The notes under the pieces are model-generated. The model was not told where the DNA came from, made no database searches, and saw only the letters and a list, made by a program, of their open reading frames with translations. Below are positions 1 through 64,000 of a DNA stretch of 64,000 bases, piece by piece (position 1 is the stretch's first letter; every line of letters begins with the position of its first letter). Position numbers and translations under genes: made by a program. Location of the stretch: NCBI GenBank assembly GCA_036785375.1, contig JAWMAR010000268.1, positions 1,860,001-1,924,000 of the forward strand. Reading direction: 5' to 3'. The DNA is from Leucoraja ocellata. Its lineage: Eukaryota.

Positions 1-2934
1 TGAATGGGTGACGTTTCCGGTCGAGATCCTTCTTCAGACTCGAAACGTCTATCTTCAGTGTAAGTCAGCATCTGCAGTTCCTTCCTATACATTTCATCTG
101 CAGTATTATTCAGCTCAGTCCTAAGGGAATAAAAGTCAATGGTCCCAGCACTGAGCCGGGGAACCCACTCTCAACCATTCTCTGAAATGATAGTTCTACC
201 TTTTAGGCTAAAGTCTTATATATGCAGCGGCTGAGAACCTGAATCAGTGTGCCTCGGTTTTGCAGTTTGTTTTTGTGATGGGGTGGCACTGTGGCGCAGC
301 TGTGGAGTTGCTGCCTTACAGCGGCAGAGACCCGGGTTCGATCCCGACTACGGGTGCTGTCTGTACGGAGTTTGCACGTTCTCCCTGTGACCAATTGCAA
401 ATTGTCCCCAGTGTGTGTAGTAGGACAGTGCCAGTGTGTGTGGATCGCTGGTCGGTGCGGACTCAGCCCTGTTTCTGCATTATATCTCTCAACTAAACTA
501 AACTAAACATTCCGTCAAGCTTCTGGGAAACTCAGTCACCTTGGTCAAATCTGATTTATATTTTAAGGACACAAAATGCTGGAGTAACTCAGCGGGTCAG
601 GCAGCATCTTCGGAGATCAGCCGATGTTTGATTGGGACCCTCTTTTGGTCTGAAGAAGGGGCCTGACCTGAAAGGTCACCGTTCCACGATCTGTAGAGAA
701 ACTGCCTGACCCACTGAGTTACTCCAGCACTTTGTGTCTTTTTTTTTTGTATACCAGCATCTGCAGTTTCTTGTGTCTGATTTATCTTTTACTTACGCCT
801 CGCAAGAGATCTGTGTCGCTCTGCTCTATTAACCCTTCCCATGAATCTGTTTCCAGTTTGCTACTGAAGGCTTTTTTGCAGCCAAGCTAACCTTGCACAG
901 TCTGCAGTTACCTCTATGCAGAGACACGGAACTGCAGATGCTGGTTCATACACTAAATGTTATTCCCTGGATCCTGTATCTGTACACTGTGGACATTTGC
1001 TTGTCATCATGTATTGTCTTTCCACTGACTGGATAGCACGCAACAAAAGTTCTTCAGTGTATCGGTGAATGTGACAATCAGCTACGCTAATCTAATCCAG
1101 CAGGTCAGGCAGCATCTCTAGGGAGCATGAATAGGTGACGTTTCAATAGACAATAGATAATAGGTGCAGGAGTAGGCCATTCGGCCCTTCGAGCCAGCAC
1201 CGCCATTCTATATGATCATGGCTGATCATCCAAAATCAGTACCCCATTCCTGCTTTTTCCCCCATATCCCTTGATATCCATTAGCCCTAAGAGCCACATC
1301 CAACTCCCTCTTGAAAACATCCAGTGAATCGGCCTCCACTGACTTCTGCGGCAGAGAATTCCACAGATTCACGACTCTCTGGGTGAATTTGTTTTACTCA
1401 TCTCGGTACACACACTGCCGCCCAGCTTTGTGTCATCTGCAGTCTTGGAGATGTTACCTTTAATTCCTTCGTCTAAATCGTTAAGGAGTAGAATTGAAAC
1501 GGAAATTGTAATCAGAATCTGATGAAAACGTGGTAGATCGGCTGTCAGGAGTGAGGGAGTGAGAGGTGAACGGACTCGGGATTCAAGTGTAAACCTCGCT
1601 GAACCCGGGTCTCTGGCGCCGAGAGGCAGCGTCTTTCCCAGCTGCTCCACCGTGCCCAGAGGTCGCTGCTATGCTCAATCTGCCTCAGACTGGGCTTGCG
1701 ATGAGTCTCGAACTCGAGATGGAACGGGATGCAGTCTATCCCTGAGTCCTGGCCTGCTGCACAATAAAGAAGCGGAAACAATGAATTGCAGGTGGCGGGC
1801 AGCACACAAAAGGACGCAAAACGTTACTCCGAACGTTTTGGGCCAAGACCATACTGCAGTGGGCAGTACCACGGGGCAAGGGCAAGTGTGGGTGCAGATG
1901 GCAGTGAGCGGCTCTGACAACGAGTTAACATGGATGCGCTTGAGTGGAACTGACTGCATTTGCGTAGTTCAGAGCACTGGGCTAGAATGTGCCGTTTTCA
2001 GCTCTCTTCTCCTGTCATATTTGGTCTGATCATTCCCCGTGATCTGGGCTGCAGATGACGGTGCCTCTACAAGCCTGCGGTCAACTCTCCCCTTATTAAT
2101 TTATAACAAAGAAACCAGCCCTCGGTAAAATTCTTCAGCCAGATGTCTGTTGAGAAAGTAGGTCTTATGTAAGGAAAAGTCAGAAGATTTAGATTATCTT
2201 GCTGCTAATTGGGGTAAATAACATGATTTCTTGACAGGACCGAATCTTCACATTATGCTTTTAGAAAAAAAAGTTTCAAGATCAAATGTCTGAAGCGTTT
2301 GTTTTTATTTCATATGTCCGCTATTTTTGAGTCGCAGATCTCTCAGCGTGCCCCGTTTGCGCAGCCTTACAGCGCCAGAGACCTGGGTTCGATCCTGACT
2401 ACGGATGCAGTCTGTTTCACGTTTATACATTCTGCCCGTGACCGAGGAAACACTTTTTCTCACAGAGAGTTGTGAGTCTGTGGAATTCTCTGCCTCGGAG
2501 GGTGGCAGAGAATACTTTCAAGAGAGAGCTAGATAGGGCTCTTAAATTTCCAAATAATTTCCCAATCACCCTTTCTGGCTTAAGCCCTCCCTTCACCACC
2601 TCCGGTTTAAATTCCATTTGGAATATTTTGGAGGACCAAGAAACCAAGAACCAAGGTCCTACCAGGGACACGTGACAATAAACTCTCTTGAACTTGAGTA
2701 ACTCAGAACTGGAGAACAAGGAGAGGTGACATTTTGGACCAAGATGCTTCTGCAAACGGGTCATGAGGTTCCCGACCCTAATCATCACCTCGCCATGTTC
2801 TCCAGAGTTGCTGCCTGACCTGCTGAGCTTGTGTGTCATGTTTGGCCCATATCCCTCTAGCTGTTCCTATCCATGTACCTGTCCAAATATTGCCTTTCCA
2901 TAAGAGTCCAGCATAGGACTGATGAAGCTGATAG

Positions 2935-3228
2935 GCGGCACGGTGGCGCAGCGGTAGAGTTGCTACCTTACAGCACCAGAGACCCCGAGACTACGGGTGC
3001 TGTCTGTACGGAGTTTGCACGTTCTGTTCTCCCTGTTCACCTGCGTTGGTTTCCTCTGGGTGCTCCGGATTCCTCCCACACTCCAAAGACGTACAGGTTT
3101 GGTATCATTGTAAATTGATCCTAGTGTGTGTCGGATAGTGTTAATGTGCGGGGATCGCTGGTCAGCACGGGCTCGGTGGGCCGAAGGGCCTGTTTCCACG
3201 CTGTATCTCTAATCTAAACTAAACTAAA
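2935..3228 (+). mobile_element. HE1-like tRNA-derived V-SINE (representative)
   Basis: tRNA-like head TGGCGCAGCGGTAG, V-domain GGAGTTTGCACGTTCT...CTCCCACACTCCAAAGAC, CR1-derived tail GGCCGAAGGGCCTGTTTCC and (CTAAA)n. Other copies at about 283-510, 6096-6340, 7030-7437(-), 12940-13430, 27700-27965(-), 34697-34985, 38060-38315(-), 40830-41110, 57213-57530 and 60712-61225. Confidence 0.88.
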
Positions 3229-6578: not shown

Positions 6579-7477
6579 ACTGAGTGCTGCGCAACACACC
6601 ACACAACATCCACTATAACCAGAGTCCTTTACCTAACAGAGTCTCAGCGCTGGGTAGATTCACGGGACAATCATGAGTTTTATGAATGGGCAATAAATAT
6701 GCAGAAATAAACTCTCAAATAATAAAAAACAAACACTTATTTAATAGGAAAAATGTTGAAACAAGGAATTGCAGATGCTGGTTTAAAGTCTGAAGCAGAA
6801 TCCTGACCCTAAAACGTTACCTATCCATGTTCTCTTGGGATGCTGCCTGACCCGCTGAGTTACTCCGGCACTTTATAGCAGGTCGACTCAGAGCAGAAGC
6901 TTTCATTTAAACATAACATAGAACAGTACAGCACAGGAACAGGCCCTTCAGCCCACAATGTCTGTGCCGAACATGATGCCAAATTGGTCTCCTCTGACCT
7001 TAAAGATGCGCCCTTTAGTACTTGTCATTTAATTTAGACTTTGGAGATACAGCACGGAAACAGGCCCTTCGATGAAGCCAGTCTGTGCCGACCAGCGATC
7101 ACTGTCCTACACACACTAGGGACAATTTACAAGTCTGAAGAAGGGTTTCAGCTCGAAACGTTGCCTATTTCCTTCGCTCCATAGATGCTGCTGCACCCGC
7201 TGATTTTCTCCAGCACTTTTGTCTACCTAGGGACAATTTACAATGAATGGAGGCCAATTAACCTGCAAACCTGTACGTCTGTGGAGTGTGGGAGGAAATT
7301 GGAGCACCCGTTAAAATACCCACGCAGGTCATGGGGGGAACGTACAAACTCCGTACAGACTGCACCTGTTGTCGGGATCGAACCCGGGTCTCTGGCGCCG
7401 TGAGGCAGCAACTCTACCGCTGCGCCACCGTGCCGCCCGATTTAGACAGTGCACAAAAATATTCATCAGCTGTGGAT

Positions 7478-7565
7478 TGGTTACGACTTCAGTGAACATT
7501 CAACGCTGTCGGTGAGTTTGGACATTAGAGGAACCATCGACCGTTGACTGTACCCTGCGGCCGAG
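7478..7565 (+). ncRNA. mir-181: pre-miRNA, miR-181a-type (syntenic position of mammalian mir-181c)
   Basis: 7495-7517 AACATTCAACGCTGTCGGTGAGT is the mature miR-181a-5p sequence. The star arm ACCATCGACCGTTGACTGTACC at 7533-7554 folds back on it. Confidence 0.96.
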
Positions 7566-8690: not shown

Positions 8691-8729
8691 CGGATCTTGT
8701 TGGCGCTGGTCACCAGCGCTGTTGGTAAA

Positions 8730-12935: not shown

Positions 12936-14664
12936 AGGTTGAGTTGCTGCCTTACAGAGACCCGGGTTCGATCCTGACTACGGGTGCTCTCTGTATGGAG
13001 TTTGTCCGTTCTTCCCGTGACCTGCGTGGGTTTTATCCAAGATCTTCGGTTTCCTCCTACACTCCAAAGGCATACAGGTTTATAGGTAGTCACCCCCCAT
13101 CGGTCTGAAGAAGGGTTTCGGCCCGAAACGTCGCCTATTTCCTTCGCTCCATAGATGCTGCTGCACCCGCTGAGTTTCTCCAGCAATTTTGTGTACCTTC
13201 GATCTTCCAGCATCTGCAGTTCCTTCTTGAATGCATTTCGTTGTCTCTGTACTGTACACTGACAATGACAATTAAAATTGAATCTGAATCTGAATCTGAA
13301 TTTGAACACAGGTTTATAGGTTAATTGGCTTGGTATAAATGTAAATTGTTCCTAGCATGTGTAGGATAGTGTTAGTGAGCATGGATCGCTGGTCGGCACA
13401 GACTCGGTGGGCCGAAGGGCCTGTTTCTGTGAATGTATGTGTTGCCGCTGAGAATGTCGGAAGAGTTTTTGCACAGCTCTTTTTGTACATATTAATAATT
13501 CTGAATTATTTTTGGAAATTAAAAAAATATGTATTAACCCAGGGACATTGGGGAGGAGGGACAAGTCTGCCACAGACACCCCCTCAAACAGACATATCAA
13601 TGCAGGCGGGGACATGAATGGCAAGACTGCTTGGCGTTAGGATAGTTTGTGCACACTGCTGAATATAAAGCTGATGAATGTATAATCGCTGTGAATGTCA
13701 GAAGAATTTTTGCACTGATCTCTGTTCTGTATCTTTTTTTATATTCTCAATAAAGTTTATTTTTTGTAAAAAGAAATTTGCGTTGAAGTTGGTTGTATTT
13801 TGAATAATCTTCAATTCTACTATGGTGCAAAGTGCTGGAGTAACTCAGCGGGTCAGGCAGCATCTCTGGAGAATATGGATAGATGATGTTTCAGGTTTGG
13901 ACCTTTCCTCAGGGCAGTATTCCAGCACTTAGCCCCAGCATTTTCTGTCCTATTTTGTGATCCAGTAACTGCAGTTCCTTGTGTCTACAATTTTAATATG
14001 TATAAGAATTATATCCATGGAACTGTAAATTGAATGAGACTTAATTTCATTACCAAAGTCTGTACAACATTGCCAGCTATCACATCCAGTTTTAAATGTG
14101 TGCTACCAAATCGTTTTCAGTAGGCACAAAGTGCTTTAGTAACTCAGCGGGTCAGGCAGCATCTCTTGAGAAAAAGGATGGGTGATGTTTAGGGTCAAGA
14201 CCAGACTTCAGAGAGACATCACCCATTATTTTTCTACAGAGATGCTGCCTGACCTGCTGTGTGTTGATACAATGTGGAAACAGGCCCTTCGGCCCAACAT
14301 GCCCACCGACCGGCATGTCCCAGCTACACTAGTCCCACCTGCCTGCGTTTGGTCCATATCCTATATCCATGTACACAAAAAATCTGGAGAAACTCAGCGG
14401 GTGCAGCAGCATCTATGGAGCGAAGGAAATAGGCAACGTTTCGGGCCAAAACCCTTCTTCAGACATGGCCTCCTATATCCATGTGTTTACTCCAGCACTT
14501 TGTGTCTATCTTCGGTATAAACCAGCATCTGCAGTTCCTTTCCACACCAATAGTTTTCAGTATGCATCTAGTTTTAAATAAGTAGTGTTTTCTGCAGTGC
14601 TTTAATGAAACTTGCACTTCAGTTTTTCCCTTCATAGAACATGGTCACAAGCCCTTAGGCTACA

Positions 14665-16845: not shown

Positions 16846-17003
16846 TGGGTGCAGCAGCATCTATGGAGCGAAGGAAATAGGCAACGTTTCGTCCCGAAAC
16901 GTTGCCTATTTCCTTCGCTCCATAGATGCTGCTGCACCCGCTGAGTTTCTCCAGCTTTTTTGTGTAACCTTCGATTCTCCAGCATCTGCAGTTCCCTCTT
17001 CAC
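16846..17003. mobile_element. palindromic short Penelope-derived element about 165 bp upstream of the nanos3 ATG
   Basis: Same GTTTCG-TCC-CGAAAC centre and the same arms as the copies at 33230 and 41401. Confidence 0.85.
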
Positions 17004-18003: not shown

Positions 18004-18696
18004 GACTTGTTAGTAAACCACGCTGCAATGTGGCATTTTGGGTCGAGAGCCGTCCTCAGAGGAAAGTCACCCATCCATCCCTTTTCTCCAGAGATGCTGC
18101 CTGACCCACTGAGTTGTAGAGTCGTAGAGTGATACAGTATGGAAACAGGCCCTTCGGCCCAACTTTCCCACACCGATGTTAATCATTATCGTTAATGTAG
18201 CAAAATATATGTAGCAAACGTTTGATACTTTGATATTTTGCTTCTATGCTCTGTGGAGTTTCTTGTAATACTTAATAACAGCCCACAAGTTTAGCTAATG
18301 TATCTCTGTCACACCGGTGTGTCAGTCAAGATCACTTTAGTTTGAAAAGCAGTGTTTTAATTGTTAATTTAAATTGGCAATGTTGTACTGGCTGATGCCA
18401 AACTGACCGATCAGTCAAGATTAACGCAAAAAGCTGGAGTAACTCAGCGGGACAGGCAGAGAGAATGAACAGGAAACGTCACCCATTCCTTCCCTCTAGG
18501 GATGCTGCCTGTCCCGCTGAGTTACTCCAGCATTTTGTGTCTATCTTTGGTTTAAACCAGCATCTGCAGTTCCTTCTTACACATATCAGTCAAGGTGACA
18601 TTGGTTTGAAAATTAGTACGTTTAATAGTTCATTAAAATTAGCAATTGATATTGTAATCACTTTATTTCAAAGTTGTACTTATTTATATTGATCTA

Positions 18697-25086: not shown

Positions 25087-25667
25087 TCATCCAGTTTATG
25101 AAAATTTCAATATAATAAGAACTACATCAAAATGGGGCAGTAGCATTGCTCCCTACCTAAAGATCATTCACCGAAAGAACATTCTAACCGCTGCAAAACA
25201 AGACAAATTATGCCCCAGGATAACTCTCCATAGTTGGTATGTCGAGTGACTTGAATAGAAACACAAAGCAAAGGAATTTCACCCACATGTTCTCATGAAT
25301 CAGCACAAGGTACACACATTTTTCAATTAATACTACAGTCAAACAATATGAAAGAGAAAGACATTGGGTGTAAATTTCTGCCACCCACAGTGATGTGATG
25401 AAATATTTCTCACAAGACAACAAGATGTTTTCCTGACAGCCTGAGATGTTACTGGCTGGGTTTTCACACCCTCTATACTATTTACCACAACCTTTCTGAG
25501 GACTACTTATTTCAGACAGGTGATGGTGAACTTTTGATTTAAAAAAAAAAGTCACAATCTATTTTTCTTTATCCCTTCCTGTCCAATTAAAACTCTCCTT
25601 ATTTGACAATTGCTTTTAAAATTGTCTATGAAAGGGAAAACAGGATCAGAGTTGAAGGTAGCTAACG

Positions 25668-25925
25668 ATAGACATAAAAAGCTGGAGTAACTCAGTGGCT
25701 CAGGCAGCATCACAGGAGAAAAGGAATAGGTGACGTTTCGGGTCGAGACCTTTCTTCAGACTGAGAGTGAGGGGAGAGGGAAACGACTCTCAGTCTGAAG
25801 AAGGGCCTCGACCCGAAACGTCACCCATTCCTTTTCTCCAGAGATGCTGCCTGCCCCGCTGAGTTACTCCAGCTTTTTGTGTCTATCTTCAGTTTGAACC
25901 AGTATTTGCAGTTGCTTGCTACATA
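25668..25925. mobile_element. inverted pair of short Penelope-derived elements with a hammerhead-like core on each strand (in the presumed BRME1 3' UTR)
   Basis: CTGAAGAAGGGCCTCGACCCGAAACGTC at 25795-25822 on +, and an inverted copy at about 25732-25759. Confidence 0.8.
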
Positions 25926-26931
25926 TTGAAGATAACTACATTTCACAAGGTGGGAACCAGGGATCTAATAGAAATGATGCTTGGCCCTCTCTTGTTCATC
26001 ATCTACATAAGTAAAGGTTCAGAAGCAGGAATTTCAACATTTGTGACCAGAACCAAATTGAAGGATGTGAGTCAGACAGAGGACTGGCTCAACACAGGAG
26101 AGTATTAATAAGCCTGAAGAATAAGTGTGCAACTGAATTTCAAAATAAGGCAAGTATGCGATGTATATTATGGCTACATGAATAAGGAGCCCATGCGATC
26201 CTTGGAAAATAATGAGGTGCAGGAAGAGGGATCTGGGATTATAAATACACAAATAAATGCTAACAGTCAATGCAGGCTAATGAATCTCTGCAGCTTATTT
26301 CTGGAGAAGAAACTGGAATGTAAACAACTAACGTTGGGTCTTTCCAGAACAATGCTTCATGAAACTTGGAATGCTGTTTATATTAAATGGAGTTACAAGT
26401 TTTGGTGGTGCGACAAAGATTAGTTAAGATGGTATCGTATTTCAGATAATCAGGAAAGATTGATTATACAGGCTCTTTTCAATAGAAACAGGAGAACTGA
26501 GGGGTGATTATATAATGAAACTTTTGCGAAAGGGTAAATATAGATGTTTCCTCTCGTGCAAGATCTATAAAATAGTGCTTGGAACCAAAGATCATAGAGC
26601 TATAAGATCTTTGCTTGGAACAACGTCAAAGGAGGATTTCAAGGAAATGTACTTACCAGGGGGTGTCTGCAATTTGGAACTTGTGAGCACAAATAGTATT
26701 GAAGTGAGTGGACCTTGTGGGCAATTAGTATTGAAGTGGTCCAGATGCATTTAGAGGGAAGCTTGATAAACACTGGGGAGAAAGGAACAGAAAGATACCT
26801 GGAGATTTAAATGAGACAGAGAGCTTTTAGTGCAGCATAAACTACAAGTGGACATGTTGAGGCAACTGGCCTGTTTCTATGCTGCAAGTACGTCAGCGAC
26901 TATTGTGAACACCAGCAAGCCCCAACTTTTT

Positions 26932-30000: not shown

Positions 30001-30914
30001 GAAAAGGGATCAGGAGTTAGAAAGTCACAATAACAAAGTTATTTTGTTTAGGAAGGAACTGCAGATGCTGGAAAATCAAAAGTAGACAAAAGTGCTGGAG
30101 AAACTCAGCGGGACAGGCAGCTACCAGAAATTGGCTACCAGAAATTGGAGAATTCAATGTTTATGCCGCAAGGGTGCAGACTGCCCAAGCGGAATATGAG
30201 GTGCTGCTCCTCCAATCTCTGGTGGTGCTCACTCTTGCCATGGAGGAGGCCCAGGACAGAGAGGTCGGATTCGAAATGGGAGGGGGAGTTGAAGTGCTGA
30301 GACACCGGTTCGGAATGGGAAAAATAAAGTTATTTTTCCTGCAGGATTTAAAAAAACATAAAGGTCATTTCAATAGCAGTAAGTTTTCTTTGGGTTACTG
30401 CAAGGTAAAATACCAAGGGTTGTACATTGTTCAACAGAATATCATTGCATAAGTGTCAATTGAAGTGATTGCCTGTTAATTTCAATGGCCCGCGGTTAAA
30501 GTAGCAACTGTGTAGTTAAGAGACTGATTACCGCAGGGAATAATTTCCACCCCTAAACTGTTGAAACCTTTTTTTTCTGATTGTCAATTTCCAAAGTAAC
30601 TTTTAAGTGGTTCGCTATTTGTCGATCAAAATTATGTTGTGACCAATATTTGGACTGCTTGATACAAACAGTGTTCCTGGATTCATAACCCATGTTACAA
30701 TAGAATTACCTCACAGTCATACAGCATGGAATGACTCAGCCCAAACCGCCCATGCCAACTGCCCTTCTACACTAATCCCACCTGGCTGCATTTGCCTCAT
30801 CTCTCTCAAAACCTTTCCTCTCCATGCACCTGTCCAAATATCTTTTCAATGTGGTTATAGTATCTGCCTCAACTACCTCCTCCGGCAATTCATTCTATAT
30901 TCATTCATTCATTC

Positions 30915-32956: not shown

Positions 32957-33229
32957 CTATGAAGCAGATATGAGTTAATTCTTTTAATTAGTAATTACAA
33001 TAGCTTTCTGTACATTTACAATTCTAGAGATTGCCTGACTGAAAGTTTATATTCCATATATCCAGAGCCAAGGCAGCCACTCTGTTAACACTTCACTAAA
33101 TTATGTAACATGAGCAAATAATCAAAATATGTGTTCGTTATCTCTCTGATTGAGTTCCAACATATCCAGAGACAATGAAGTTTCTGCATCAGATGTTTAA
33201 ACATTTACACCTATAAAGTCTAATGTATA

Positions 33230-33417
33230 GGGTAGACAAAAATGCTGGAGAAACTCAGCGGATGCAGCAGCATCTATGGAGCGAAGGAATAGGCAACGTT
33301 TCGTCCCGAAACGTTGCCTATTTCCTTCGCTCCATAGATGCTGCCGCACCCGCTGAGTTTCTCCAGCATTTTTGTCTACCTTCGATTTTCCAGCATCTGC
33401 AGTTCCTTCTTAAACAA
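33230..33417. mobile_element. palindromic short Penelope-derived element
   Basis: Inverted arms centred on GTTTCG-TCC-CGAAAC. Degenerate flanking direct repeat AAGTCTWATGTAYAGG. Confidence 0.85.
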
Positions 33418-33542
33418 GTCTTATGTACAGGTAGGTTTAGGTTTTTGGATATGTACAATCAAAGACTTGAAAGAAAATTGTGAAACATGTTGCATAAAAA
33501 ACAATGAATAAACATAGACTTTAATCCAAACATAAGCATTAC

Positions 33543-41310: not shown

Positions 41311-41400
41311 CTAAAGTAATGAGAAAATAGCAATTAAGTGAATCTAATTAAAGTGCATGACACAAGGAACAATTTTGAGAACTAATGCAGTCTTTTATCA

Positions 41401-41587
41401 AAGGTACACAAAAAAGCTGGAGAAACTCAGCGGGTGCAGCAGCATCTATGGAGCGAAGGAAAAAGGCAACGTTTCGGGACGAAACGTTGCCTTTTTCCTT
41501 CGCTCCATAGATGCTGCTGCACCCGCTGAGTTTCTCCAGCTTTTTTGTGTACCTTCGATTTTCCAGCATCTGCAGTTCCTTCTTAAA
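41401..41587. mobile_element. palindromic short Penelope-derived element
   Basis: Perfect 76-bp inverted repeat (41401-41476 and 41480-41555) with a 3-nt loop. Flanking direct repeat CAGTCTTTTATCA (41388-41400 and 41588-41600). Confidence 0.9.
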
Positions 41588-43314
41588 CAGTCTTTTATCA
41601 ATCTTTTTCTACCCAAGAGAAAATAAAGGATTAACCACCTCAGAGCTAAATAAAAATGCTGGTGATGCATTAATGTTTTTCATATTCCCACAACATTTCA
41701 CCCAATTCCCATCAAGATGTATTAATGGAGAAACTAGCAACCATCTGGAAAAGTTGCGAGATAGTCTCCAACGACCGCACAAAATAATTGGAGCTTCAAA
41801 AATTGACCTCCCCCTCATGATCAATTAAACTTTTGAAAATTGCATCACAAATACTATTAGCTATACTAAATGCAGCAATTCGGAGATCAAAATAACCCAA
41901 TGGACCTGAAGGGGAAGAAGATATTCTTGACCCCAAGGGATTGTCTCAGAAGTAGCTAGATCTCTTCCGCTCTGGATTCCGTGGTGGTTAACTAACACGC
42001 TTGACAGAGAGTTGGGTGGGTATTTAGGGACATGATGTGCTTCTTCTGTTGTTTACAGCGAGCATAGCCAGAGGTTATGAAATATTAATTTATTCCACAC
42101 TAAGGGGCAAAGGCAAGAGAATGGGGAAAGATAGAGACTGAAGCCATGACTGAATGGCAGAGGAGACTTGATGGGCTGAATGGCCTTATTCTGCTCCATC
42201 CATCCTCTGTTTATTGTGTCTCATTCAGTGTGGTGCTATCAGTTCAGTTTCCTGTCAGTAGACACAAAATGCTGGAGAAACTCAGCGGGTGAGGCAGCAT
42301 CTATGGAGAGAAGAAATTGGCGACATTTCGGGTTGAGACCCTTCTTCAGAGGAGGTACAGTGGTGGAAGAACCTTCATGTGGTCCGCCCTGTTTCGACGA
42401 ATGCAATCAACCTGGCGTGCACAATCAAATAAGATCAAATAGAACAAGTTGTCCTACAACTTTAGGCTGTGCACGCCATACGCAAGAAGGAGGTACAGTG
42501 AAATGTTTTTGTTGCGTGCTATCAGTCAGCAGAAAGACAACACACGATACGTAATCGAGCCATTTGCAGTGAATAGATACACGATAAGGGAATAACATTT
42601 AGTGCAAGATAAAGCCAGCAAAGTCCGATTAAGGATAGTCTGAGGGTCACCAATGAGGTAGATAGTAGTTCAGCACTGCTCTCTGGTTGTGGTAGGATGA
42701 TTCAGTTGCCTGATAACAGCTGGGAAGAAACTCAGTGTTGGAATGTTTGAATGTCTGGGCTATGACAACAGAGTGATGGTCGTCCATCACTTTGGGTAAA
42801 AACAAAGTGAAGGAACTCGGCAGGCCAGGCAGATTCTTCTTCGGACTGATGACAAGTTTGTAGAAGATTCCTGACCCGAAATATCTCCTGTCCATTTTCC
42901 TCCCACAGATGCTACCTGATCTGCTGAGTTCCTCTGGCATTTTGTTTTTTTTACTCAAGATGCTAGCTAGCATCTGCAGTTTCTTGTTTCTCTATCACTT
43001 TTTAAGTTGCCTCTCAGGAAACTGATATTCTAGAACCTGGATTTCATCCTGCGATGCGGAAAATGCCAGCGTGTGATTTATTTTAAGGTGGAGTGGCTTT
43101 TGCGAACTGATATGAAGAAAGGATAGGCACAGATTTAAGCAGCAACTTGCTCAAGGATCATGGGCAGGAAAAAGTTGCAATTATCCATTAACAATTTATC
43201 CATAATAACATATGAAGTCACAATGAATAGTCCTCCCGAATTCATAGCTGTTAGATTGTACCATGTTCGCACATTATATTGATTTTAAGAGGTTAAGGGA
43301 GGACAATATTTCAC

Positions 43315-44972: not shown

Positions 44973-45726
44973 ACCCAAGATATTTTCTGCAAAGCAACAA
45001 AAACTAAAAGTGACACATATCACAGCAAGTTATGGTGTACAAATAAAAATAAGTCTGAAGAGTGAAATAAAGAGAGAATATCTATCAGTAAGGCTATAAA
45101 AAGCTAAAACAGTGCTCAAGTAACAATTTTAAATAGAAACCTGCATTAGAACTAAGTGACTACATATACTTATTTTGCAATAAAATTACTGAATTTATTT
45201 GTTGCTAAATTAATACAAGTGTGGAAACTGAATGTTAACCATTCAATTCAATTATTAATAGCATTGAGGGAATTTTAAAGTTATTACATGCAGGATCTTA
45301 AGAGTTGTAATTTCAGCATTTCCTGCATTAAATGCTAAAATAATTATCCCATATTAAGCAGTAATAACAGTTATGATCATTTATTTCTCTCCCATATGTG
45401 TGACATCCATGTCTAATGGCAGTGTGCTCAGCTAATACAGACCACATAAATATCTTGTACTCAAACACACAGCTTGGACATCTTAAAAGAAACAAGAACA
45501 TTTCCACTTTAACAGCAAAGGACACTTTTAAATCCAAAGAACAGCAGAAAGTAATTACTTCACCAAATGAGCAACAAACACTGCTTTAATTACACTGTTT
45601 GTAATGAGGGTCTTAATCAAATTAATCTGTGGCATTCTCAGCAACAAAGTTTGAAACAAATTCCAGAAGTATCTCAGTAACATTTTGTTTACAAGCATCA
45701 GATGAGCATAGAAAGGAACTGCAGAT

Positions 45727-47275
45727 AACTCCTCTTAAACACTGTGTACACTCTACTGCGTTATCTCTTCAAGATATGCCTACCTTGAAGAAGTTCTCCT
45801 CTTCTCTCTGGAGACAGTTTCACAACCTCCTCTCTAACTGTCCCCCATCTGTGATCCCTCCTGCCCTCCAACTGTACGACCACATTCTTACCCAGACTCG
45901 ATACCACAGCCACATCTGCTTCCTCGGGGCCTGCCTGCGCCTCCATCTCATACCCCATGGCTTCCAGCTACAGTTCCCTACCTCCCAGTTCGGACCGCAA
46001 CTGGACCATCGGTACCGACTGGCCATCCACCGGCATACCCAGCAACTGACTGACTTCATCCACTTCACCACTAATTTCCATCCGGCACTGAAATACACCT
46101 GGACCATTTCCGACACTTCCCTACCATTCCTTGACCTCACTATCTCCATTGCAGGTGATAGACTTCTAACCGACATACACTATAAACCCACTGACTCCCA
46201 TGGCTATCTGGACTACACTTCTTCCCACCCTGCTTCCTGTAAGGACTCCATCCCCTACTCCCAATTCCTCCGTCTACGCCGCATCTGCTCCACGGATGAG
46301 GCGTTCCACACCAGGACATCTGAAATGTCCTCACTATTCAGGGAACGGGGGTTCCCCTCCTCCACCATAAATGAGGCTCGCACCAGGGTCTCTTCCATAC
46401 CCCGCAACACTGCTCTCTCTCCCCATCCCCGCACTCGCAACAAGGGCCGAGTCCCCCTAGTCCTCACCTTTCACCCCACCAGCCGTCACATACAAAAAAT
46501 AATCCTCCGTCAGTTTCGCCACCTCCAACGTGACCCCACTACTCGCCACATCTTCCCATCTCCCCCCATATCTGCCTTCCGCAAAGACCGCTCCCTCCAT
46601 AACTCCCTTGTCAATTCTTCCCTTCCCTCTCGGTCCACCCCCTCCCCGGGCACTTTCCCTTGCGGCCGCAGGAGATGCAACACTTGTCCCTTTGCCTCCC
46701 CCCTCGACTCCGTTCAAGGACCCAAGCAGTCGTTCCAGGTGCGACAGAGGTTTACCTGCATCTCTTCCAACCTCATCTATTGCGTCCGCTGCTCTAGATG
46801 CCAGCAGATCTATATCGGTGAGACCAAGCGGAGGTTGGGCGATCGTTTCGCCGAACACCTCCGCTCGGTCCGCAATAACCAAGCTGACCTCCCGGTGGCT
46901 CAGCACTTCAACTCCCCCTCCCACTCCGCCTCCGACCTCTCTGTCCTGGGTCTCCTCCATGGCCACAGCGAGCAGCACCGGAAATTGGAGGAACAGCACC
47001 TCATATTCCGTTTGGGGACTCTACACCCCCGGGGCATGAACATCGAATTCTCCCAATTCTGTTAGTCCTTGCTGTCTCCTCCCCTTCCTCAGCTCCCCTG
47101 CTGTCTCCTCCCACCCTCCAGCCTTCTGGCTACTCCTCCTTTTCCCTTTCTTGTCCCCACCCACCCCCACCGCCGATCAGTCTGAAGAAGGGTTTCGGCC
47201 CGAAACGTTGCCTATTTCCTTCGCTCCATAGATGCTGCTGCACCCGCTGAGTTTCTCCAGCTTTTCTGTGTAACC
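45727..47275 (+). mobile_element. Penelope-like retroelement, internally deleted, with an in-frame ORF (ATG 45776 to stop 47065) encoding the RT C-terminus/thumb and a GIY-YIG endonuclease
   Basis: LPFLDLTI...IHYKPT and SIPYSQFLRLRRICS (PLE RT C-terminus); CGRRRCNTC; NLIYCVRCSRCQQIYIGET...RFAEH (GIY-YIG). No YxDD motif. Flanked by the direct repeat AAGGAACTGCAGAT (45713-45726 and 47276-47289). Confidence 0.93.
47182..47209 (+). ncRNA. minimal hammerhead-ribozyme-like motif in the Penelope 3' repeat
   Basis: CTGAAGA-A-GGGT(TTCG)GCCC-GAAA-C-GTT: conserved core boxes, helix II, a palindromic ACGT in place of helix III, and an NUH triplet. Such minimal motifs are established for Penelope-like elements. 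Confidence 0.65.
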
Positions 47276-50081
47276 AAGGAACTGCAGATGCTGGTTCTGG
47301 TCAAAGATAGACACAAGTGTTGGAGTAACTCAGCCGGTCAGCCAGCATTTCTGGAGAAAAAGGATGGGTGACATTTTAGGTCGGGACCCTTCTTTGGATT
47401 AAAGATTTTTTTTTAGAGCCATACAGTACGAAAATTGGTCCTTTGATCCAACTTGCACACACCGACCAAGATGCCATCCACACTTGTCTATCTGCAATGT
47501 CTTTTAAATATTGTTATTGTACCTGCCTCAACTACCTCCTCTAGCAGCTTGTTCCATATACCCACCACTCTCTGTGAAGCTTCCTATTAAATTGCTCCCC
47601 TCTCACCTTAAATCTATGTCCTCTGGTTCTTGATTCCCCTACTCTGGGTAAATGGTTTGGGCAATTTACTCTAAAATGTTCCATATTCCTGCGCCTGCAG
47701 TCTATCTTGTGGCATTTCTTCGGGAGCTTATTGCCATAGCAACAAATCACCTATCCATGAGGGTATCCATGTGAACTGTTCAAACAGTACCCTTTCACAG
47801 ATTTACAGTAAACTTGTGTTTAATACATGTTATAGAACTGAAGGGTTCAAGAAGGCAGTAAACTTCTACTCCCACCTTCAGAACAGTGGCTAGCTCAACA
47901 TTAAACTGATGGCAAGACCAAGCGTTGACTCGGCGACATTTTGCTGAACATTTGCGTTCAGTCCGCCAAGGCCAATTGGATCTCCTGGTTTCTAACCATT
48001 TTAACTCCCTTTCCGATTACCATACTGGCCTTTCTGACTTTGGCCTCCTCCGCTGACAGAGTGAGGCCACACGCAAATTGGAACACTTCATATTTTGCTT
48101 GGGTAGCTTACAACACAACGGTATGAATGTTGAATTGTCTAATGTTAGGTAATTTCTACAAACACTGGCCTACCCCATTCCTTTGATTTTATCCTCCGCT
48201 CATTGCACTCCTCATCCTCCCTCCACTATAAGTCGGTTAACCAGTTACAAAGATCGCAACTTGTATTCCTCTTGGGATCATATCGTCCCTAGCCAACATT
48301 CGGCCTATTAGGGAAACATCCTGCCCGAGGTAATCTGTTGCCAGCTCTTATATGTCATGGTCTTTACTTGCTTCCAGTTACCCTTATCCCCCCCCCCCCT
48401 CTTCCCTCCTCCCCATAATCACTGGAGCAGGTTCCCAACTCAAAATGTCACCTGTCCATTTTCTTCAGAAATGCTGCCTGACCCGCTGAGATAGTCCAGC
48501 ATTTTGCATCCATCTTTAGTATAAACCAGCATCTGCAGTCCCTTTATATTATATTTTATTACACTGATATGCCAGGCCAGGCAATAAGGTTATAGCAGGT
48601 GGGAGACCCTTTGCAAAAGTCCAATATACATAGCATTATCTGCTATTCTCACTGAATTAAACATCTATTCATAATTTCAACTGATACCTTACTTAATTTA
48701 TAAGCATTTGACAGCTAAACTGAATATCATTCATTTCATGTGTTGTCTGCTGATCAATAATCACATGGTCAGCGGTTGGTGTGTGAGGGAGGGAGGAGAA
48801 GGGTAACTGACAGGCGCCCGCCCTGCTGAGTTTATCCAGCACTCTGTGTTTTGCTCAAGATTCCAGCATTTGCAGTTTCATGTGACTCGATAATTTTGGA
48901 GGAACTGTGCTTTGGAGATTTCAATTTGGCATTATGGGAGGGAAAATGCTTTAAAAACTGGTTTGAGAATGTTGGAGTAGTACCCCACCCTAGGCAGCAT
49001 TCAAGCATGCAGCTTCCCGAGCTCTGGGCCACCTGTCTCACCCGTAAGGCCAAATTCAGCCCAAAAAACTCGTCATACAGCTTTATAGATAGTCATATGG
49101 CATAGAAACAGACTTTTTGACCCAACCTTTCCGTGCCAACCAGGATGCCCATCTAAGCTAAACCTATTTGCCTGAATTTGGTTCATATCCCGAAACCCTT
49201 CCTTGGTTGCCCTCCCGTGGGAAAAATACTGTGCATTTACAGTCTATTCCTCTCATGATCTTATACATTTCCATAAGAACCTGAGGCAGATGTGATCGCT
49301 GCCTCCCCTGGTGCTTTTTCATTGTAGTTTTACGATGAGACCAGCGAGCACAAATGTAATATATTTATATGCGAAACAAGTTACCTGTACTATGGAAGGC
49401 AAGGACGTGTAATGAAGGATCGGCCTGCGCTCCAGTCCAAGCCTGCCCAACCTCTCCCTGTAACTCTGGCCTTCGAGTTCTGGCAACTTGACCATTAATG
49501 AAACATCGCTGTACCCTTTCCAGCTAAGCACCACTCTTCCTGTAGCAGAATGACCAAACCTGACCACAATACTCTGAATAACGCCTCACCAATGTCTTGT
49601 ACAACTGTAGCATAACATCCTAACCTCTATAGTCAATACCCTGCCCTGACTGACAAAGGCCAATGTTCTTCTTCTTGGTTTCTTGGTCCTCCAAAATGTT
49701 CCAAATGGAATTTAAACTGGAGGTGGTGAAGGGAGGGCTTAAGCCAGAAAGGGTTATTGGGAAGAAAGAGCTACTTTAAATTTAGTTGCATCTGGTTGGG
49801 TAACTGTAGTAGGGTGGAGATTATTCCATGCTTTATTTGTGCGGGGGAAGAACAGAATCATTTAATCCTTCTCATTAACACGCTCTTTTCGCAAGTTTCC
49901 GATATAAATATATACTCAAATGATCTAACTACCTGGATATTTTTCGTGTTAATAAACTCCGCGTTCCCACACGAAGCTCACAGCTCCTTCCCGCCCGATT
50001 CGCCAGTGTAATATGCGCCTGCGCGGCACCTTGGGTAGTGTAGTTCCATTGTGGTCCACTCTGACTGTAACGATGGACAGC

Positions 50082-56991: not shown

Positions 56992-57098
56992 CTCCACTCC
57001 CAATGGAAGCGATTGAGAGAATGGCTGCTCTGTGCATGAAGGATCTGGATGAAGAAGACATTGATGATGATGTGGACGATGATGACGCAGACTTGATG
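56992..57098 (+). CDS. CC2D1A: CC2D1A coding exon 3 (APLPMEAIERMAALCMKDLDEEDIDDD...DLM)
   Basis: AG acceptor and GTAAAG donor, 107 nt, phase 1->0. Matches human PLPMEAIEKMASLCMRD. Confidence 0.93.
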
Positions 57099-58896
57099 GT
57101 AAAGATGTTTTCTCATTATATATTTGATTTGTTTTGCCTGAGCTGAAGCCCAGTTCTGGTTTTTATTGTTTTCTGTGGCCCTACACCATTTAAAAAAAAA
57201 AAAGAAAAAAAGGGCAGTACATTGGCGCAACAGTAGAGTTGCTGCTTAATAACGCCAGAGACCCAGGTTCGATTCTGGCTACGGGTGCTGTCTGTACGGA
57301 GTTTCCACGTTCTCCCCGTGACCGTGTCGGTTGTCTCCGGGTTCTTCAGTTTCCACTCGCATTCCAAAGACGTACGGGTTTGTAGATTAATTGGCTTTGA
57401 TAAAAATTGTAATTTATCCCTCGTATGTACAACAGTGCTAGTGTGGGGGGTGATTGATGGTCGACGCGGACTTGGTGGGCTGAAGGACGTATTTTCGCAC
57501 TGTATCTGTAAAGTAAAGTCTAAATTAAAATAAAGGACAGATCTATGATTGAAACTTCAGGTCTCAGCAGAATAGCGGCAATGTTACCTGCAATAATACT
57601 TGGATCGTTAAATATTCAAACTGGGAATCTTTTTTTCCTTTTGAAACCAAATAGGCTATTGAGCTAGTTATACTTGATTTCCGACAGGATTGTTATTGAT
57701 TCAGCACGCATATTGTGGGCTTAAGGACCTGTTCCTGTGCTATAATGTTCAGTTCTAAAACCTGCAAAGGCATCCTGCATTTTGTGTTTAAATAAGGCAC
57801 ATCTTATATCTGATTCATGTGTACGTGCAGAAAAAGCCTGCGGTCGTGCTGGTGTGACTACCATTGTCTTGCTCAACATTCTCCGATCGAAACTTAAGAG
57901 CCTTTTATATCCCTGTTAGTTGGGCTAATAACAGAAATACCTTGGTGATTTAGAAAACTAGGTGTCTGATTAATAATTTATCAGTTTGAATCTAAGTGTT
58001 TGTTTGACTACAGGTGTTAAAATATTCATGTACAATGCTGCCAACCCTCCTTGTACTATGTAGAAAGGTGCTGCAGATGCTGGTTTATATCAGTATAAAA
58101 AATACCAATTCCGGCATTTTGTATCTACCTTTTACTACAACTGTTTGCCGCATGTTATATATCTTTGTATTGAAGAATATTGGGTTTTTTTGCAGCACAA
58201 ATGTTTAGGGAGAATGGATTTAAATAATCCCAATTAGCGCTACATTCTGAAGTGGCATTTGAGTACAATAGGGAGGCATGACAGCTGCTACCTGCTGCGT
58301 AGACATGTCAAATCCACCGTTGAATCTTTGCTGCTCCTCACTCTGCCTTTGTTACACCATGCTGTTAGTATGCATCCTGTCTATCATTATGCTTTTCACA
58401 GCCTTTCTTTTAATGTGTGGGAAGGAACTGCAGTTGCTGGTTTAAACCGAAGATAGACACAAAAATCTGGAGTAACTTAATGGGACAGGCAGCATCTCTG
58501 GAGAGAAGGAATGGGGGACTTTTCAGGTTGAGATCCGTCTGAAGAAGGGTCTCGATCCGAAATATCACCCATTCCTTCTCCGGAAATGCTGCCTGTTCTG
58601 CTGAGTTACTCTAGGATTTTGCATCTAGTTACAAGTATATCTTTTCTGAAATAGGAAGACCAGATACATGAGAGAGTACAAAATACAGCTGATAGTACTC
58701 CAGATTTTTGGGTCTATCTTCCATTTCTTTTAATGTTCTCTTTCTTGGATTTTGTTTAAATAGCTGAGATTTGCTGTCCTGGGCATTACTGCTGCAGAGA
58801 CAGCCAAGAGCTGGCAGTTTCATGAGCTCCAGTCATGCATTTGAATTTAGATAATTCTGCGTAATTGAAGACTATTTTAAGTTACTACTTTTCCAG

Positions 58897-58989
58897 GCAG
58901 AATTGAATGAAGTCCTTGAAGATGATGAACCAAGTATGAATGTCACCCAACCTGCAGAAACAAAACCTACGCCTGACAGAACTTCACAG
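58897..58989 (+). CDS. CC2D1A: CC2D1A coding exon 4 (AELNEVLEDDEP...RTSQ)
   Basis: Acceptor cttttccag, donor GTAGAT, 93 nt. AELNEVL is conserved. Confidence 0.9.
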
Positions 58990-61232: not shown

Positions 61233-61539
61233 AAGCCCTGTCCCATGGTACGAGTTCATTCCAAGACCTCCCGAGTTTGACCTGATTCGAACTCAGAGAT
61301 TTACGGTAATGGCCACTCGTCGGTACTCGGGGCTCTCGTGGACATTTTTCAACATGTCGAAAAATCTTCACGAGTCTTCCTGTGCTTACCTGCCGTTAGC
61401 GAGTCTTCCCGAGTACCTAAGAGATGTCCCCGAGCTCCGACGTACCCGCTACGTTCATTCTCCGTGCTTACCCCGAGTTTGATTTTTGTTTAGGCTCGGG
61501 AGAGCTCTTGGAATGAACTCGTACCGTGGGACAGGGCTT
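61233..61539. mobile_element. MITE, PIF/Harbinger-like
   Basis: Termini AAGCCCTGTCCCAYGGTACGAGTTCATTCCAAGA and its reverse complement. 3-bp TSD TCA (61230-61232 and 61540-61542). Confidence 0.85.
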
Positions 61540-61617
61540 TCACAGCGTGAATTGTTGTAGATAGCGTTGCACTCTTAAGATCATGAACTAATTGAGTGTG
61601 CCTCTGTTTAATTGCAG

Positions 61618-61749
61618 CTCAGTACATCATCTGTAGGCAGCCTGGAAGGCACCCTGGTGGAGAGGATTGACATGTACAAATGTGCGATAGACAATGCGAA
61701 ACAATCTGGCGAGAGCTCCAAACTGCGAAGATACGAACGTGGCCTTAAG
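61618..61749 (+). CDS. CC2D1A: CC2D1A coding exon 5, first DM14 repeat (LEGTLVERIDMYKCAIDNAKQSGESSKLRRYERGLK)
   Basis: AG acceptor and GTTAAA donor, 132 nt. DM14 signature. Confidence 0.93.
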
Positions 61750-62940
61750 GTTAAAAATATCCACTAGTTTTGTAGATATGGTGATCAAAAAAGCTTTTGG
61801 CACGTTGGCCTTCATTAGTCAGAGTATTGAGTATAGAAATTTGGAAGTCATGTTGCAGTGATACAAGACATTGGTGATGCCACATTTCGAGTATTGCCTT
61901 CAGTTTTGTTCACCATGTTATAGGAAAGATGTCATGTTGGAAAGGGTGTGGAGAAGATTTGACGATGATGATTCTTTATTGCCACATTTACCTAAGGTAC
62001 AGTGTAATTTTTTGTTTTGCATTGCATGGACAAAGTATGCAAAGTCGCCACATATAGGGTGCCTGAAGAAGTGCCCATAGGGTGTCTGAAGAAGGGTCTC
62101 CACCCGAAAAGTCACCCATTCCTTCTCTCCAGAGGTGCTGCATGTCCCGCTGAGTTACTCCAGCTTTTTGTGTCTATCTAGGGTGCCAATGATGTGTACG
62201 TGGATGTTGCCAGGACTCTGGGGCCTGAGCTGTAGGGAGAGTTTGAGCAGAGGTGACTCTATTCCTTGGAGCGCAGTGGAGGATGATGAGGTGTGATCTG
62301 ATAGAGGTGTACAAAATCATGAGAGAAATAGATCGGGTAAATGCACAGTCTTTTGACCACAGTAGGGTTATCGAGAACCGGAAGGAATAGGTTTATGCTG
62401 TGGGAGGGAAGATTTAATAGGGAGGTGGAGAAGAGGGGTAACCTTTTTACACAAAGAGTGGTGGGTGTATGGAACGAGCTGCCGAAGGCGGTAGTTCAGG
62501 CAGGTACTATGGCGACATTTAAGAAACATTTTGACAGGTACATGGATAGGATGGGTTTAGAGGGATATGGGCCAAAAGCAGGCAGGTGGGAGCAGTGTAG
62601 ATTGGACATGGTGGTCCGCATGGGCAAGTTGGGCCGAAGGGCCTGTTTTGCTGCTGTGTGAATGACTTTGGTGCTCCTGTACAATTAGAATTGTTGGATC
62701 TTGTCTGTTTCCGTGGGGCAATGCCAACTGAACGTTGAGTTTCGGAACTTGTTGCTGGTGTGAGTTTCAGGCCTAGGTTGTCTTATGTCCTTACATTGGG
62801 CTGGAGCTGTCACTTTCTGACCACTGGAAGCCCTTTGAGCTCTTTTAATGGTCAAGGACACCTGGATTGTGGAGTACAGTCAAATGAGAAAAAAAAAATT
62901 TTTAGTCCTATTAATGATTTTTTTTTTTCTTTTCTTTAAG

Positions 62941-63280
62941 ACTCTACAATCGATGTTTACATCTGTGAAGAAAGGGAAGCAGATTGATGAAGAAGACATC
63001 CCACCCGCCGTGGCTTCCGGGAGAAATAATAACACAGCCACTCCACCCGCCTCGGAGACAGCAACACCCTCAACAGGGGATCGGTCTTTGTTGATCGACC
63101 TTTCTGTGCCCACAGAGCACCCTGTGCCACCGCCAAAGCCTGCAGCACCTGCTCTGCTACCCAAGCCAAAGATGTCCGTACCCCAAGTTATTGCTCCATC
63201 AGCCGCAGAGCAAAGCCCACGGGCACTGCCGGTACCCGCAAAAATAGAAACAACCATCGCTGTGTCTAATAACAAAGCAG
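62941..63280 (+). CDS. CC2D1A: CC2D1A coding exon 6 (TLQSMFTSVKKGKQIDEEDIPP... proline-rich linker); gene continues beyond the window
   Basis: Long pyrimidine-tract acceptor, donor CAG|GTAGGA, 340 nt. Completes the DM14 repeat. Confidence 0.92.
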
Positions 63281-64000
63281 GTAGGATTGGAATTCTCCAA
63301 CCTGTCCAATGCTTTCTATTGTTGTAGACATACAGCTAAGAAACAGGCCCTTCGGCCCAGCTTGCAACATGTCCCAGCTGCACCCACCACCCTTTGTGTG
63401 AAGAAATGACCCCTCAAGTTCCTATTAAATCTTTTCCCCTCCACCTAGTTCTTGATTTTTCTACTCTGGGCATGAGACTGTGCATCTACCCGATCTATTC
63501 CACGTGTAATGTTAATGTAACTGCAGATGCTGGACAAATCGAAGTTAGACAATTCAGATTCAGATTCAATTTTAATTGTCATTGTCAGTGTACAGTATAG
63601 AGACAACGGAATGCATTTAGCATCTCCCTTGAAGAGCGACATAGCAAACGATTTGAATAAAAATAATAAGTGAATAAAAATAATAAGTGATAAGTAATAA
63701 AAACAATAATGCTAGAGAAACTCAGCGGGTGAGGCAGCAGCTATGGAGCAAAGGAACAGGTGACATTTCGGGTCGAGACCCTTCTTCAGACGTAGATGTA
63801 GGAAGGAACAGCAGATGCTGGTTTAAACCGAAGAGGAGGTACTGTGCGAAGAAGGGTCTCGACCTGAAAGTTCTCTCAATGTTGATGCAATAAGTGATAG
63901 GAGCTGAATTCGGCCCTTCGGCCCATCGCATTGACTCCGCCATTCAACCCTGGATGGTCTATCTTTCCCTTTCACTCCCGTTCCCGTTCTCCTGCCTTCT

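Follow-up and report, generated by a model that had tools for sequence, protein, structure and literature searches.

Short repeats carrying a hammerhead ribozyme-like motif are scattered through a 64,000-nt stretch of the skate Leucoraja ocellata (contig JAWMAR010000268.1, positions 1,860,001 to 1,924,000, forward strand), referred to below in its full length as the window. They share their sequence with the end of a long Penelope retroelement in the same window (45727-47275), and the question raised by this locus is whether they form a ribozyme-bearing family that propagates itself or are left behind by Penelope insertion. A first, sequence-only reading of the window had proposed a very high-copy, non-autonomous, retrozyme-like family. 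The present analysis indicates that the short elements are very probably dead-end insertion products of Neptune-type Penelope elements in skate.

Size and composition of the repeat family

A blastn search with two window copies as queries recovered 83 repeat arms at 55 loci, dispersed over both strands of the window; five shuffled windows gave no match in any case. The arms occupy 7,954 bp, or 12.6% of the non-N bases, at a density of 0.87 loci per kb. An earlier count of about 30 copies had thus caught the dispersal and the use of both strands and missed the number, and most of the 83 arms do not carry a full motif. All eight coordinates quoted with that count bear the motif or a decayed form of it; the literal sequence pattern given for them is exact only at 13105 and 47182.

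Positions within the repeat are numbered from the C of the CUGA box of the hammerhead (+1). The unit begins near -3 and ends near +95; some copies add a tail of about 35 nt, which reaches to about +132. Subfamily A is young (12 arms, median divergence of 3.8% from its own consensus), and the end of the long element belongs to it; the remaining 71 arms are of older, mixed B types (median divergence of 13.8%). The arms are 5'-truncated 3' ends, or pseudo-long terminal repeats (pLTRs), and represent no fewer than two Penelope subfamilies of the Neptune type. The hammerhead is spanned by 40 of the 83 arms. Core boxes are retained in 19 of these, together with a 4-bp helix II in 12, and the motif is fully intact in five (7135+, 13105+, 14462-, 47182+ and 58539+); four of these five are subfamily A. 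The copy at 25795 has a C.A mismatch leaving a 3-bp helix II, and was recovered only by a looser descriptor permitting 3 bp. The family and its informative members, with their target-site duplications (TSDs), are as follows.

2..63845, both strands: whole family of pLTR-derived arms (83 arms, 55 loci, 12 A and 71 B)
7133..7228, plus strand: solo A copy with an intact motif and a 17-bp TSD, starting at G(-2), about 350 bp 5' of the first mir-181 hairpin and on the same strand
13093..13231, plus strand: solo A copy with tail, carrying the best motif of the window (3-bp helix I, GUC site)
14372..14464, minus strand: solo A copy with an intact motif and a 14-bp TSD, situated within an inverted pair that is interrupted (14121-14548)
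16847..17000: near-perfect palindromic A pair with +11 as the start of both arms, the 5' core box being lost
18062..18590: three arms in the putative nanos 3' untranslated region (UTR), all without the CUGA box
25664..25926: head-to-head inverted B pair with a helix II mismatch in both arms and a tail on the plus arm only
30045..30308, minus strand: 3' fragment of a Penelope in which the endonuclease end meets the distal pLTR and tail, the hammerhead having been deleted
33229..33419: near-perfect palindromic A pair from +11, with a 12-bp TSD containing one mismatch
41400..41589: near-perfect palindromic A pair from +11, with a 14-bp TSD and a hairpin fold of about 70 bp (z -22.7)
47915..48544, plus strand: older Penelope 3' fragment with endonuclease end, longer UTR, decayed hammerhead and tail
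58413..58627: inverted B pair within an intron of cc2d1a; the descriptor accepts its plus arm (core 58539), where helix III is AUAU

The palindrome at 41400-41589 is about 90 bp away from a coding exon and, as RNA, would be double-stranded over a long stretch; in this third palindrome the loop is flipped relative to the tail. Matches of the MIR1507 type in Rfam, all under the gathering score, proved to be the palindromic pairs and were set aside.

The long Penelope element

The only long copy in the window is made up as follows, where ORF stands for open reading frame and RT for reverse transcriptase.

45713..45726, plus strand: left TSD, 14 bp, within the tail of an older minus-strand copy
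45727..47275, plus strand: internally deleted, putative Neptune-type Penelope of subfamily A, ending at the short pLTR end
45730..45742, plus strand: final 13 nt of the tail, at the Penelope 5' end
45776..47065, plus strand: 429-aa ORF, its N-terminus fused in frame near 46042 to the C-terminal part of RT, a CX4CX2C linker and GIY-YIG
47066..47179, plus strand: pyrimidine-rich presumed 3' UTR, its TCAG end abutting the hammerhead
47180..47211, plus strand: intact minimal hammerhead with a UUCG loop and a predicted cut after 47209
47276..47289, plus strand: right TSD, 14 bp
47276..47394, minus strand: older B copy whose tail was the insertion target of the Penelope

That this Penelope ends in the sequence of the short copies was correctly seen at the outset, and the limits of the element coincide with a 14-bp TSD (45713-45726 = 47276-47289). 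The companion claim, that the short copies end in the tail with which the Penelope begins, is right as to the 13-nt match at its start and too broad for the family, only 26 of the 83 arms reaching the tail. The Penelope opens with the 13 nt that close the tail, which confirms that the tail forms the beginning of the following unit. The exact sequence TTCCTTCTTAAACA occurs at two sites only (33403 and 41576). At 45713-47289, the long element landed inside an earlier insertion of the same family, in the tail, a single case; Penelope endonucleases are reported to recognise the tail, and the nesting in the window agrees.

Residues 1-73 of the ORF correspond to residues 1-73 of a 904-aa relative, and residues 90-426 to its residues 568-902. 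About 480 aa including the RT core are absent from the 429-aa ORF, the RVT_1 region (391-578 in the relative) being mostly gone. Because the core is deleted in frame, this element cannot supply reverse transcriptase. In contig run X15, depth rises 63-fold at 46042; thus, the deletion is not the family norm. The GIY-YIG domain of this RT-less copy is a weak match (E 0.0027, below the Pfam cut-off), and relatives at about 50% identity have a single ORF with RT and, at its C-terminus, GIY-YIG. The ORF contains the linker CGRRRCNTC, with Cys invariant in the alignment; by this linker motif, and not by a tree, the element is probably of the Neptune type. Relatives were taken from 80 metagenome loci, of which 43 had an ORF preserved nearly to its end and sufficient sequence 3' of it; none was found in the viral contigs or prokaryote genomes searched. 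Two relatives look full-length (L001, at 612 and 3678; L024, at 269 and 3421), with a hammerhead in both pLTRs and ORFs of more than 900 aa.

Insertion ends, tails and inverted pairs

The 3' ends of the 83 arms are bimodal: 37 lie at +85..100 and 26 at or beyond +116, with three between and 17 shorter. Among 21 head-to-head pairs, the tail is present on one arm in 19, on neither in two and on both in none (alignment score cut-off 18; p=1e-4); the corresponding figures are 20/1/0 at a cut-off of 16 and 16/5/0 at 20. Four further inverted pairs were omitted, each with an arm broken off at the window edge or interrupted by a separate insertion. A loose tail pattern had given 17/3/1 with false positives on inspection, and alignment scores were used in its place. 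TSDs of 7-17 bp surround solo copies and whole pairs, with a score of at least 9 in 11 of 43 units compared with 2 of 291 random intervals. Because TSDs bracket whole pairs, each pair represents one event. Post-tail sequence, which is the 5' region of Penelope, is present in no window copy, so the copies are presumably unable to recruit the Penelope protein. In one distant relative, L034 (3624-3715 and an inverted partner), the short arm ends at +91 in TTTTGTGT and the tail in CAGTTTCTT. The closeness of these ends to those in skate suggests that start-site signals may be conserved across Neptune-type elements.

Such structures are familiar from Penelope biology. The hallmarks of Penelope insertions include 5' truncation of inverted copies and, at one end, a tail of 30-40 bp (PMC8557442). 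For the anole element, two internal start sites bounding the tail have been described, with both target strands cut and extended and an RNA element downstream of the start sites required; the main substrate is unprocessed RNA, ribozyme cleavage is protein-dependent and dispensable for insertion, and RNA-seq ends are absent at the ribozyme cut site (PMC11167929). The earlier proposal that the short elements derive from Penelope 3' ends and were inserted by Penelope machinery is supported by their ends, tails, TSDs and inverted pairs, all observed directly.

By analogy with the in vitro work on the anole Poseidon element, the Penelope protein would cut the target and prime inside its own RNA at two sites about 35 nt apart, one at the short end and one at the tail end. 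Most cDNAs would halt after 90-135 nt, most commonly at the first base of helix I. A solo copy would result from a single cDNA. A head-to-head pair with one tail and a shared TSD would arise when each start site contributes a cDNA, the two lying on opposite target strands. The hammerhead would come with the pLTR of the master element, where it is maintained over long evolution, and would then decay neutrally in the copies. These have no sequence 3' of the tail and would probably not be mobilised again.

Five-prime ends and the RNA template

Thirty of the 83 arms start at -5..+1, where 5.8 would be expected among the 73 in range if starts were uniform (p=1e-14; 18850 and 24039 stem from one locally duplicated event). 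Two of the thirty (22625 and 48413) run further upstream, leaving 28. The peak is no artefact of the reference: it persists at copies whose boundary is set by a TSD or by the inverted partner. Other 5' ends fall at +21 (eight) and at +11 (six, in the three palindromes); an apparent cluster at +48..53 was dropped, with six found and 5.8 expected. No arm starts at +28..30, the position expected of cleaved RNA (2.9 expected, which means no enrichment and is not proven depletion). From this absence of 5' ends at the cleavage site, the cleaved RNA is probably not the template. Loose ends with unrelated flanks before 47180 were found in at least 173 contigs of run X15 and at least 189 of run X20, and before 47179 in at least 108.

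Copies that extend upstream have a pyrimidine tract there, mostly with YAG directly before UCUGA. As to what stops the copies at this point, we give about an even chance to an RNA start at the TCAGTC, which resembles an initiator (Inr); a block at a splice acceptor is about half as likely, and other causes together carry the same weight as the latter. TCAGTC fits the Inr consensus. In the Penelope of D. virilis, the start site and an intron are reported within the pLTR, and the intron ends at helix I (PMC4209133). The +21 ends coincide with the 3' foot of helix II, where pausing may have occurred. Templates spliced to an upstream exon were rejected, as the -2/-3 ends have no shared preceding sequence (agreement 0.33-0.35), and no GT..AG joint was found among the matches listed. 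A second hammerhead register cutting just 5' of the cluster was likewise rejected by eye, since its helices I and III cannot form.

Carried to the whole genome, these observations lead to a tentative proposal, which we consider somewhat less likely to be right than wrong: skate genomes would hold about a million solo or inverted pLTRs, mostly run-off cDNAs of the 5' leader of Penelope mRNA, primed at the tail and running off at the first base of helix I, and a palindromic derivative may be amplified separately. If so, the genome would be a natural map of RNA 5' ends with uncleaved RNA as template. The transcription start (or splice acceptor) would then coincide with the 5' end of the ribozyme, and the leader hammerhead would be born with a 2-bp helix I and stay off.

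The same data bear on the retrozyme-like reading, in which a SINE-like (short interspersed element-like) or retrozyme-like family of short masters with their own start site is re-inserted in trans by the Penelope protein. Such a family would be consistent with the very high density, the sharp shared 5' end and the loop variant peculiar to the palindromes, whose +11 end occurs in at least 59 contigs of run X20; Penelope-derived retrozymes have also been reported in one chondrichthyan genome (10.64898/2026.07.22.740005). Against it, no tandem array of the unit appears among 18 rows of Tandem Repeats Finder output; the direct neighbours at 19921/20033, 55262/55372 and 63821/63801 never carry two intact motifs, and no head-to-tail array with an intact hammerhead in two or more consecutive units was found in the window. 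No copy has post-tail sequence, the A copies lie 2-6% from a consensus that matches the pLTR of the ORF-bearing element, and two raw RNA runs provide a weak negative in the lack of a pile-up of begins or ends. The canonical hammerhead of retrozymes (6-bp helix I and loop-loop contact) is likewise absent, helix I being 2-3 bp. With ordinary truncated-insertion ends, tails and pairs throughout, a self-propagating family is improbable, and the retrozyme-like proposal is not upheld.

Several points nevertheless weigh against dead-end Penelope insertion. A sharp common 5' end would be expected equally from a short, independent master RNA. No intact master was found among the material analysed. No TSD scoring 9 or more was found for 32 of the 43 units, and three of the 21 pairs have a tail-only partner and are hence circular in the tail test. 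A TCC/GGA loop is present in all three perfect palindromes and in no linear A copy of the window; this loop hints that the palindromes may be a subclass with its own master, possibly a separately amplified hairpin. Lastly, the hammerhead core is better kept than positions +29..90 (8.4% vs 13.1% mismatch, p=0.006), a gap ascribed, without proof, to subfamily-variable positions.

The hammerhead motif and its relatives

At 47180-47211, the motif consists of a 2-bp helix I, CUGAAGA, an extra A, a 4-bp helix II, GAAA and an ACGU palindrome, and lies 116 nt past the stop at 47065. The CUGANGA, GAAA and NUH boxes occur in this order in 19 of the 40 spanning arms and in both subfamily consensuses, which also share the palindromic ACGU without a loop III. 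Helix I is 2 bp, or 3 bp at 13105, compared with mostly 3-6 bp in relatives. The first pair of helix II in 18 window copies is G-C in 14 and G.U in three. The published consensus of Penelope hammerheads comprises CUGANGAH, G...C, GAAAN, a palindrome and NUH, with the base between 9 and 10.1 conserved, and the published set includes examples with a 2-bp helix I (PMC4209133). The extra A after CUGANGA, earlier regarded as an anomaly, is therefore part of that consensus.

Among the 43 usable relatives, the motif lies 100-320 nt 3' of the ORF in 16, compared with none of the 43 on the reverse strand and none of 860 shuffles. A structure-free search with the core boxes only, chance hits kept, gave 35 distinct motifs (33 from relatives and two from the window). 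Helix I pairs in 27 of these (partner shuffles: mean 6, maximum 13) and helix II in 30 (mean 16, maximum 21), and the extra base is A in 33; the 35 motifs are mutually related, so the comparison with shuffles is not a probability. Compensatory helix changes were observed directly across the related families. One relative has a core and helices identical to the published Neptune motif of Acropora digitifera. Where the A and B motifs differ (U-A to U.G in both helix I and helix II, C to U at the cleavage base), the fold is preserved in every case. An Rfam search of the window with E up to 5 gave no match to a hammerhead family. Thus, boxes, helices and relatives agree with the first identification of a minimal type I Penelope hammerhead with a palindromic ACGU helix III. 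At the level of the master elements, the motif is thus a true minimal Penelope hammerhead, a putative ribozyme.

Decay and folding of the motif in the copies

Within the window, the picture is one of directly observed decay. Two-sided change among 18 selected copies was found at none of six helix pairs, and pairing did not exceed that of shuffles. The most decayed position in B is the CpG of helix III, with 41 of 110 cells mutated (37%) compared with 4% in A; the AUAU helix III of 58539+ apparently reflects such CpG decay. Mismatch at non-CpG core positions is 8.4%, and 9.9% in the downstream block +45..88. The copies are not under selection for the hammerhead and decay neutrally. What the sequence-only reading had named in advance as telling against itself is for the most part what was found: no two-sided covariation among copies, a core not clearly above the conserved downstream block, and solo Penelope hammerheads already published.

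Folding from -3 to +94 gave a helix II probability of at most 0.09 in eight of nine copies, because GAAGG of the core pairs with a downstream CCUUC. The flank can reverse this sequestration, as at 62086, where helix II reaches 1.0 with 20 nt more. The segments 13095-13145 and 25785-25835 fold no better than shuffles (z 0.8 and 0.6).

These folds raise the possibility that the motif is a catalytically dead relic even in the masters, kept as an RNA structure or promoter element, a matter orthogonal to the origin of the copies. The low helix II probabilities would fit such a relic, as would a helix I of 2 bp (3 bp in one copy) beside the mostly 3-6 bp of relatives, a cleavage site that is the start of no copy, and eight of nine Xenopus dimers left uncleaved (10.64898/2026.07.22.740005). 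However, all A/B differences keep the fold, helix I is 2 bp in some published motifs (PMC4209133), and the anole motif cleaves only with its own protein (PMC11167929), so that poor folding of naked RNA is expected. A dead relic is, on balance, doubtful and still a serious possibility.

RNA and host transcripts

Raw RNA runs of two related organisms have reads from both pLTR strands, about 2,000 and 1,750 in run X21 compared with about 100 and 30 in the ORF. Among the sequencing runs listed as containing the repeat, none is registered as RNA, a result without bearing on expression. Neither run showed a pile-up of begins or ends anywhere, in libraries that are weak for cleavage ends; similarly, no unit-length circle joint was found among the matches listed, in libraries unsuited to it. 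The reads on both strands fit passive co-transcription of many copies.

The suggestion that self-cleaving motifs are placed in introns and UTRs fares unevenly. For UTRs it is not supported, as no CUGA box is present in any of the three arms that lie 3' of the nanos stop and before the first AATAAA. For introns it comes down to one intact motif in sense in a mapped intron, 58539+ in cc2d1a, with its AUAU helix III. Intronic arms have no strand bias (12+/9- and 4+/4-). The intact sense candidates are 7135 (near mir-181), 13105 and 58539, each several kb from a partner.

It could be argued that some copies have been co-opted as cis-acting ribozymes or RNA switches in pri-mir-181, the cc2d1a introns or the nanos 3' UTR. 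The intact 7135+ is in sense about 350 bp 5' of the mir-181 hairpin, 58539+ is in sense in its intron, and pLTR RNA is abundant on both strands. However, intact copies are mainly the young ones (four of five in A), the closest same-strand intact pair is 6 kb apart with a weak 4-bp dimer helix (about -1.7 kcal/mol), the UTR arms have lost the core box, the intronic arms are unbiased, and the core is paired away in predicted folds. Co-option is therefore very unlikely.

Relation to known systems

The minimal hammerheads of metazoan Penelope elements share with the skate motif CUGANGA and the extra base, G10.1-C11.1, GAAA, the palindromic 15.2/16.2 and NUH, as well as the pLTR location and a predominance of solo copies with some opposite-strand neighbours (PMC4209133). 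Most published motifs are solo, some are opposite-strand pairs, and cleavage as dimers is low (PMC4209133). Skate differs in that helix I is at the 2-bp minimum of the published range, and Table S1 and Fig. S3 of that paper list no cartilaginous fish. If the window is typical, the density in skate looks far above the 4,000 motifs of coelacanth and 9,000 of Xenopus given there. Extrapolated to a genome of 2.2 Gb, 0.87 loci per kb would amount to about two million loci with about 10^5 intact motifs; coming from a single gene-dense window, this figure is a guess at the upper end.

With the Neptune clade, for which (along with Nematis) such a Cys linker has been described, the skate element shares a putative C-terminal GIY-YIG, the Cys linker between RT and endonuclease (CX2-5CxxC), 5' truncation, the inverted 5' copy and the 30-40-bp tail at one end (PMC8557442). 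It differs in that its insertions are nearly all pLTR-only and the single long copy is without the RT core. Poseidon PAc of Anolis shares the two internal start sites bounding the tail and the extension of both strands, both putative in skate, and the lack of any sign of RNA ends at the hammerhead site (PMC11167929). PAc belongs to another clade and its activity was measured, whereas the skate element is known from sequence; further, the PAc ORF starts inside the hammerhead and the skate ATG about 33 nt beyond the tail end. Non-LTR retrozymes are likewise short and non-coding, with a type I hammerhead, kinship to Penelope pLTRs and TSDs of more than 4 bp; they are distinguished by units of 150-450 bp arrayed head to tail and are described with canonical hammerheads and circular RNAs (PMC7229834; 10.64898/2026.07.22.740005), whereas the skate copies are solo or inverted, minimal and mostly broken.

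No skate or shark description was found in literature searches, some of which were swamped by unrelated papers, and the word Penelope does not occur in the main text of two little-skate genome papers. The locus thus presents known biology in an apparently new host at extreme density, with no new ribozyme class and no new retrozyme, and the family may already be catalogued. For the part that the hammerhead plays in Penelope transposition, the ends of copies provide an in vivo read-out: of the 83 arms, about a third begin at base one of the ribozyme and none at the cleavage site, in agreement with the in vitro evidence for an uncleaved template. Similarly, one tail per pair fits the two-start-site, two-strand chemistry of the anole element. 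The family makes up about one-eighth of a gene-dense window, including long intronic hairpins.

Host genes and neighbouring repeats

7484-7563 and 8729-8809, plus strand: two mir-181 hairpins
17164-18003, plus strand: nanos zinc-finger ORF
43508-35306, minus strand: coding exons of a large-exon gene
50825-63279, plus strand: cc2d1a

The gene order in the window is the mir-181 pair, nanos, the large-exon gene and cc2d1a, a block that we take to correspond to mir-181c/d, NANOS3, BRME1 and CC2D1A of human chromosome 19; the names nanos3 and brme1 are assumed on this basis. The large minus-strand exon has 94% identity to a Leucoraja erinacea protein, and PF15710 is present in a relative of this gene (43508-35306). 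The matches of the cc2d1a exons are batoid proteins. A 59-bp tandem repeat of 4.4 copies (50181-50444) lies 5' of the first cc2d1a exon, and every unit has a ACTACAAnTCCC motif and a palindromic GACGTC. The former is presumably the ZNF143-associated motif of bidirectional promoters.

Assembly gaps lie at about 5150-5665, 11480-11630 and 11820-12005 (836 N in total). A short element and at least 160 bp of its flank are locally duplicated (about 18700-18945 and 23880-24111). Three ORF fragments have no Pfam match, at 12132-12620 (minus), 19145-19672 (minus) and 30643-31326 (plus), and presumably resemble the C-termini of ORF2 proteins of long interspersed elements; the first lies within an insertion of about 1 kb that splits one pLTR arm (11436 / 12512). 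ARAGORN gave no tRNA gene in the window. A separate repeat with a tRNA-like B-box (GGTTCGATCC), at about 12950-13090, stands just 5' of the copy at 13093 and is, we assume, similar to the SINEs of sharks and rays.

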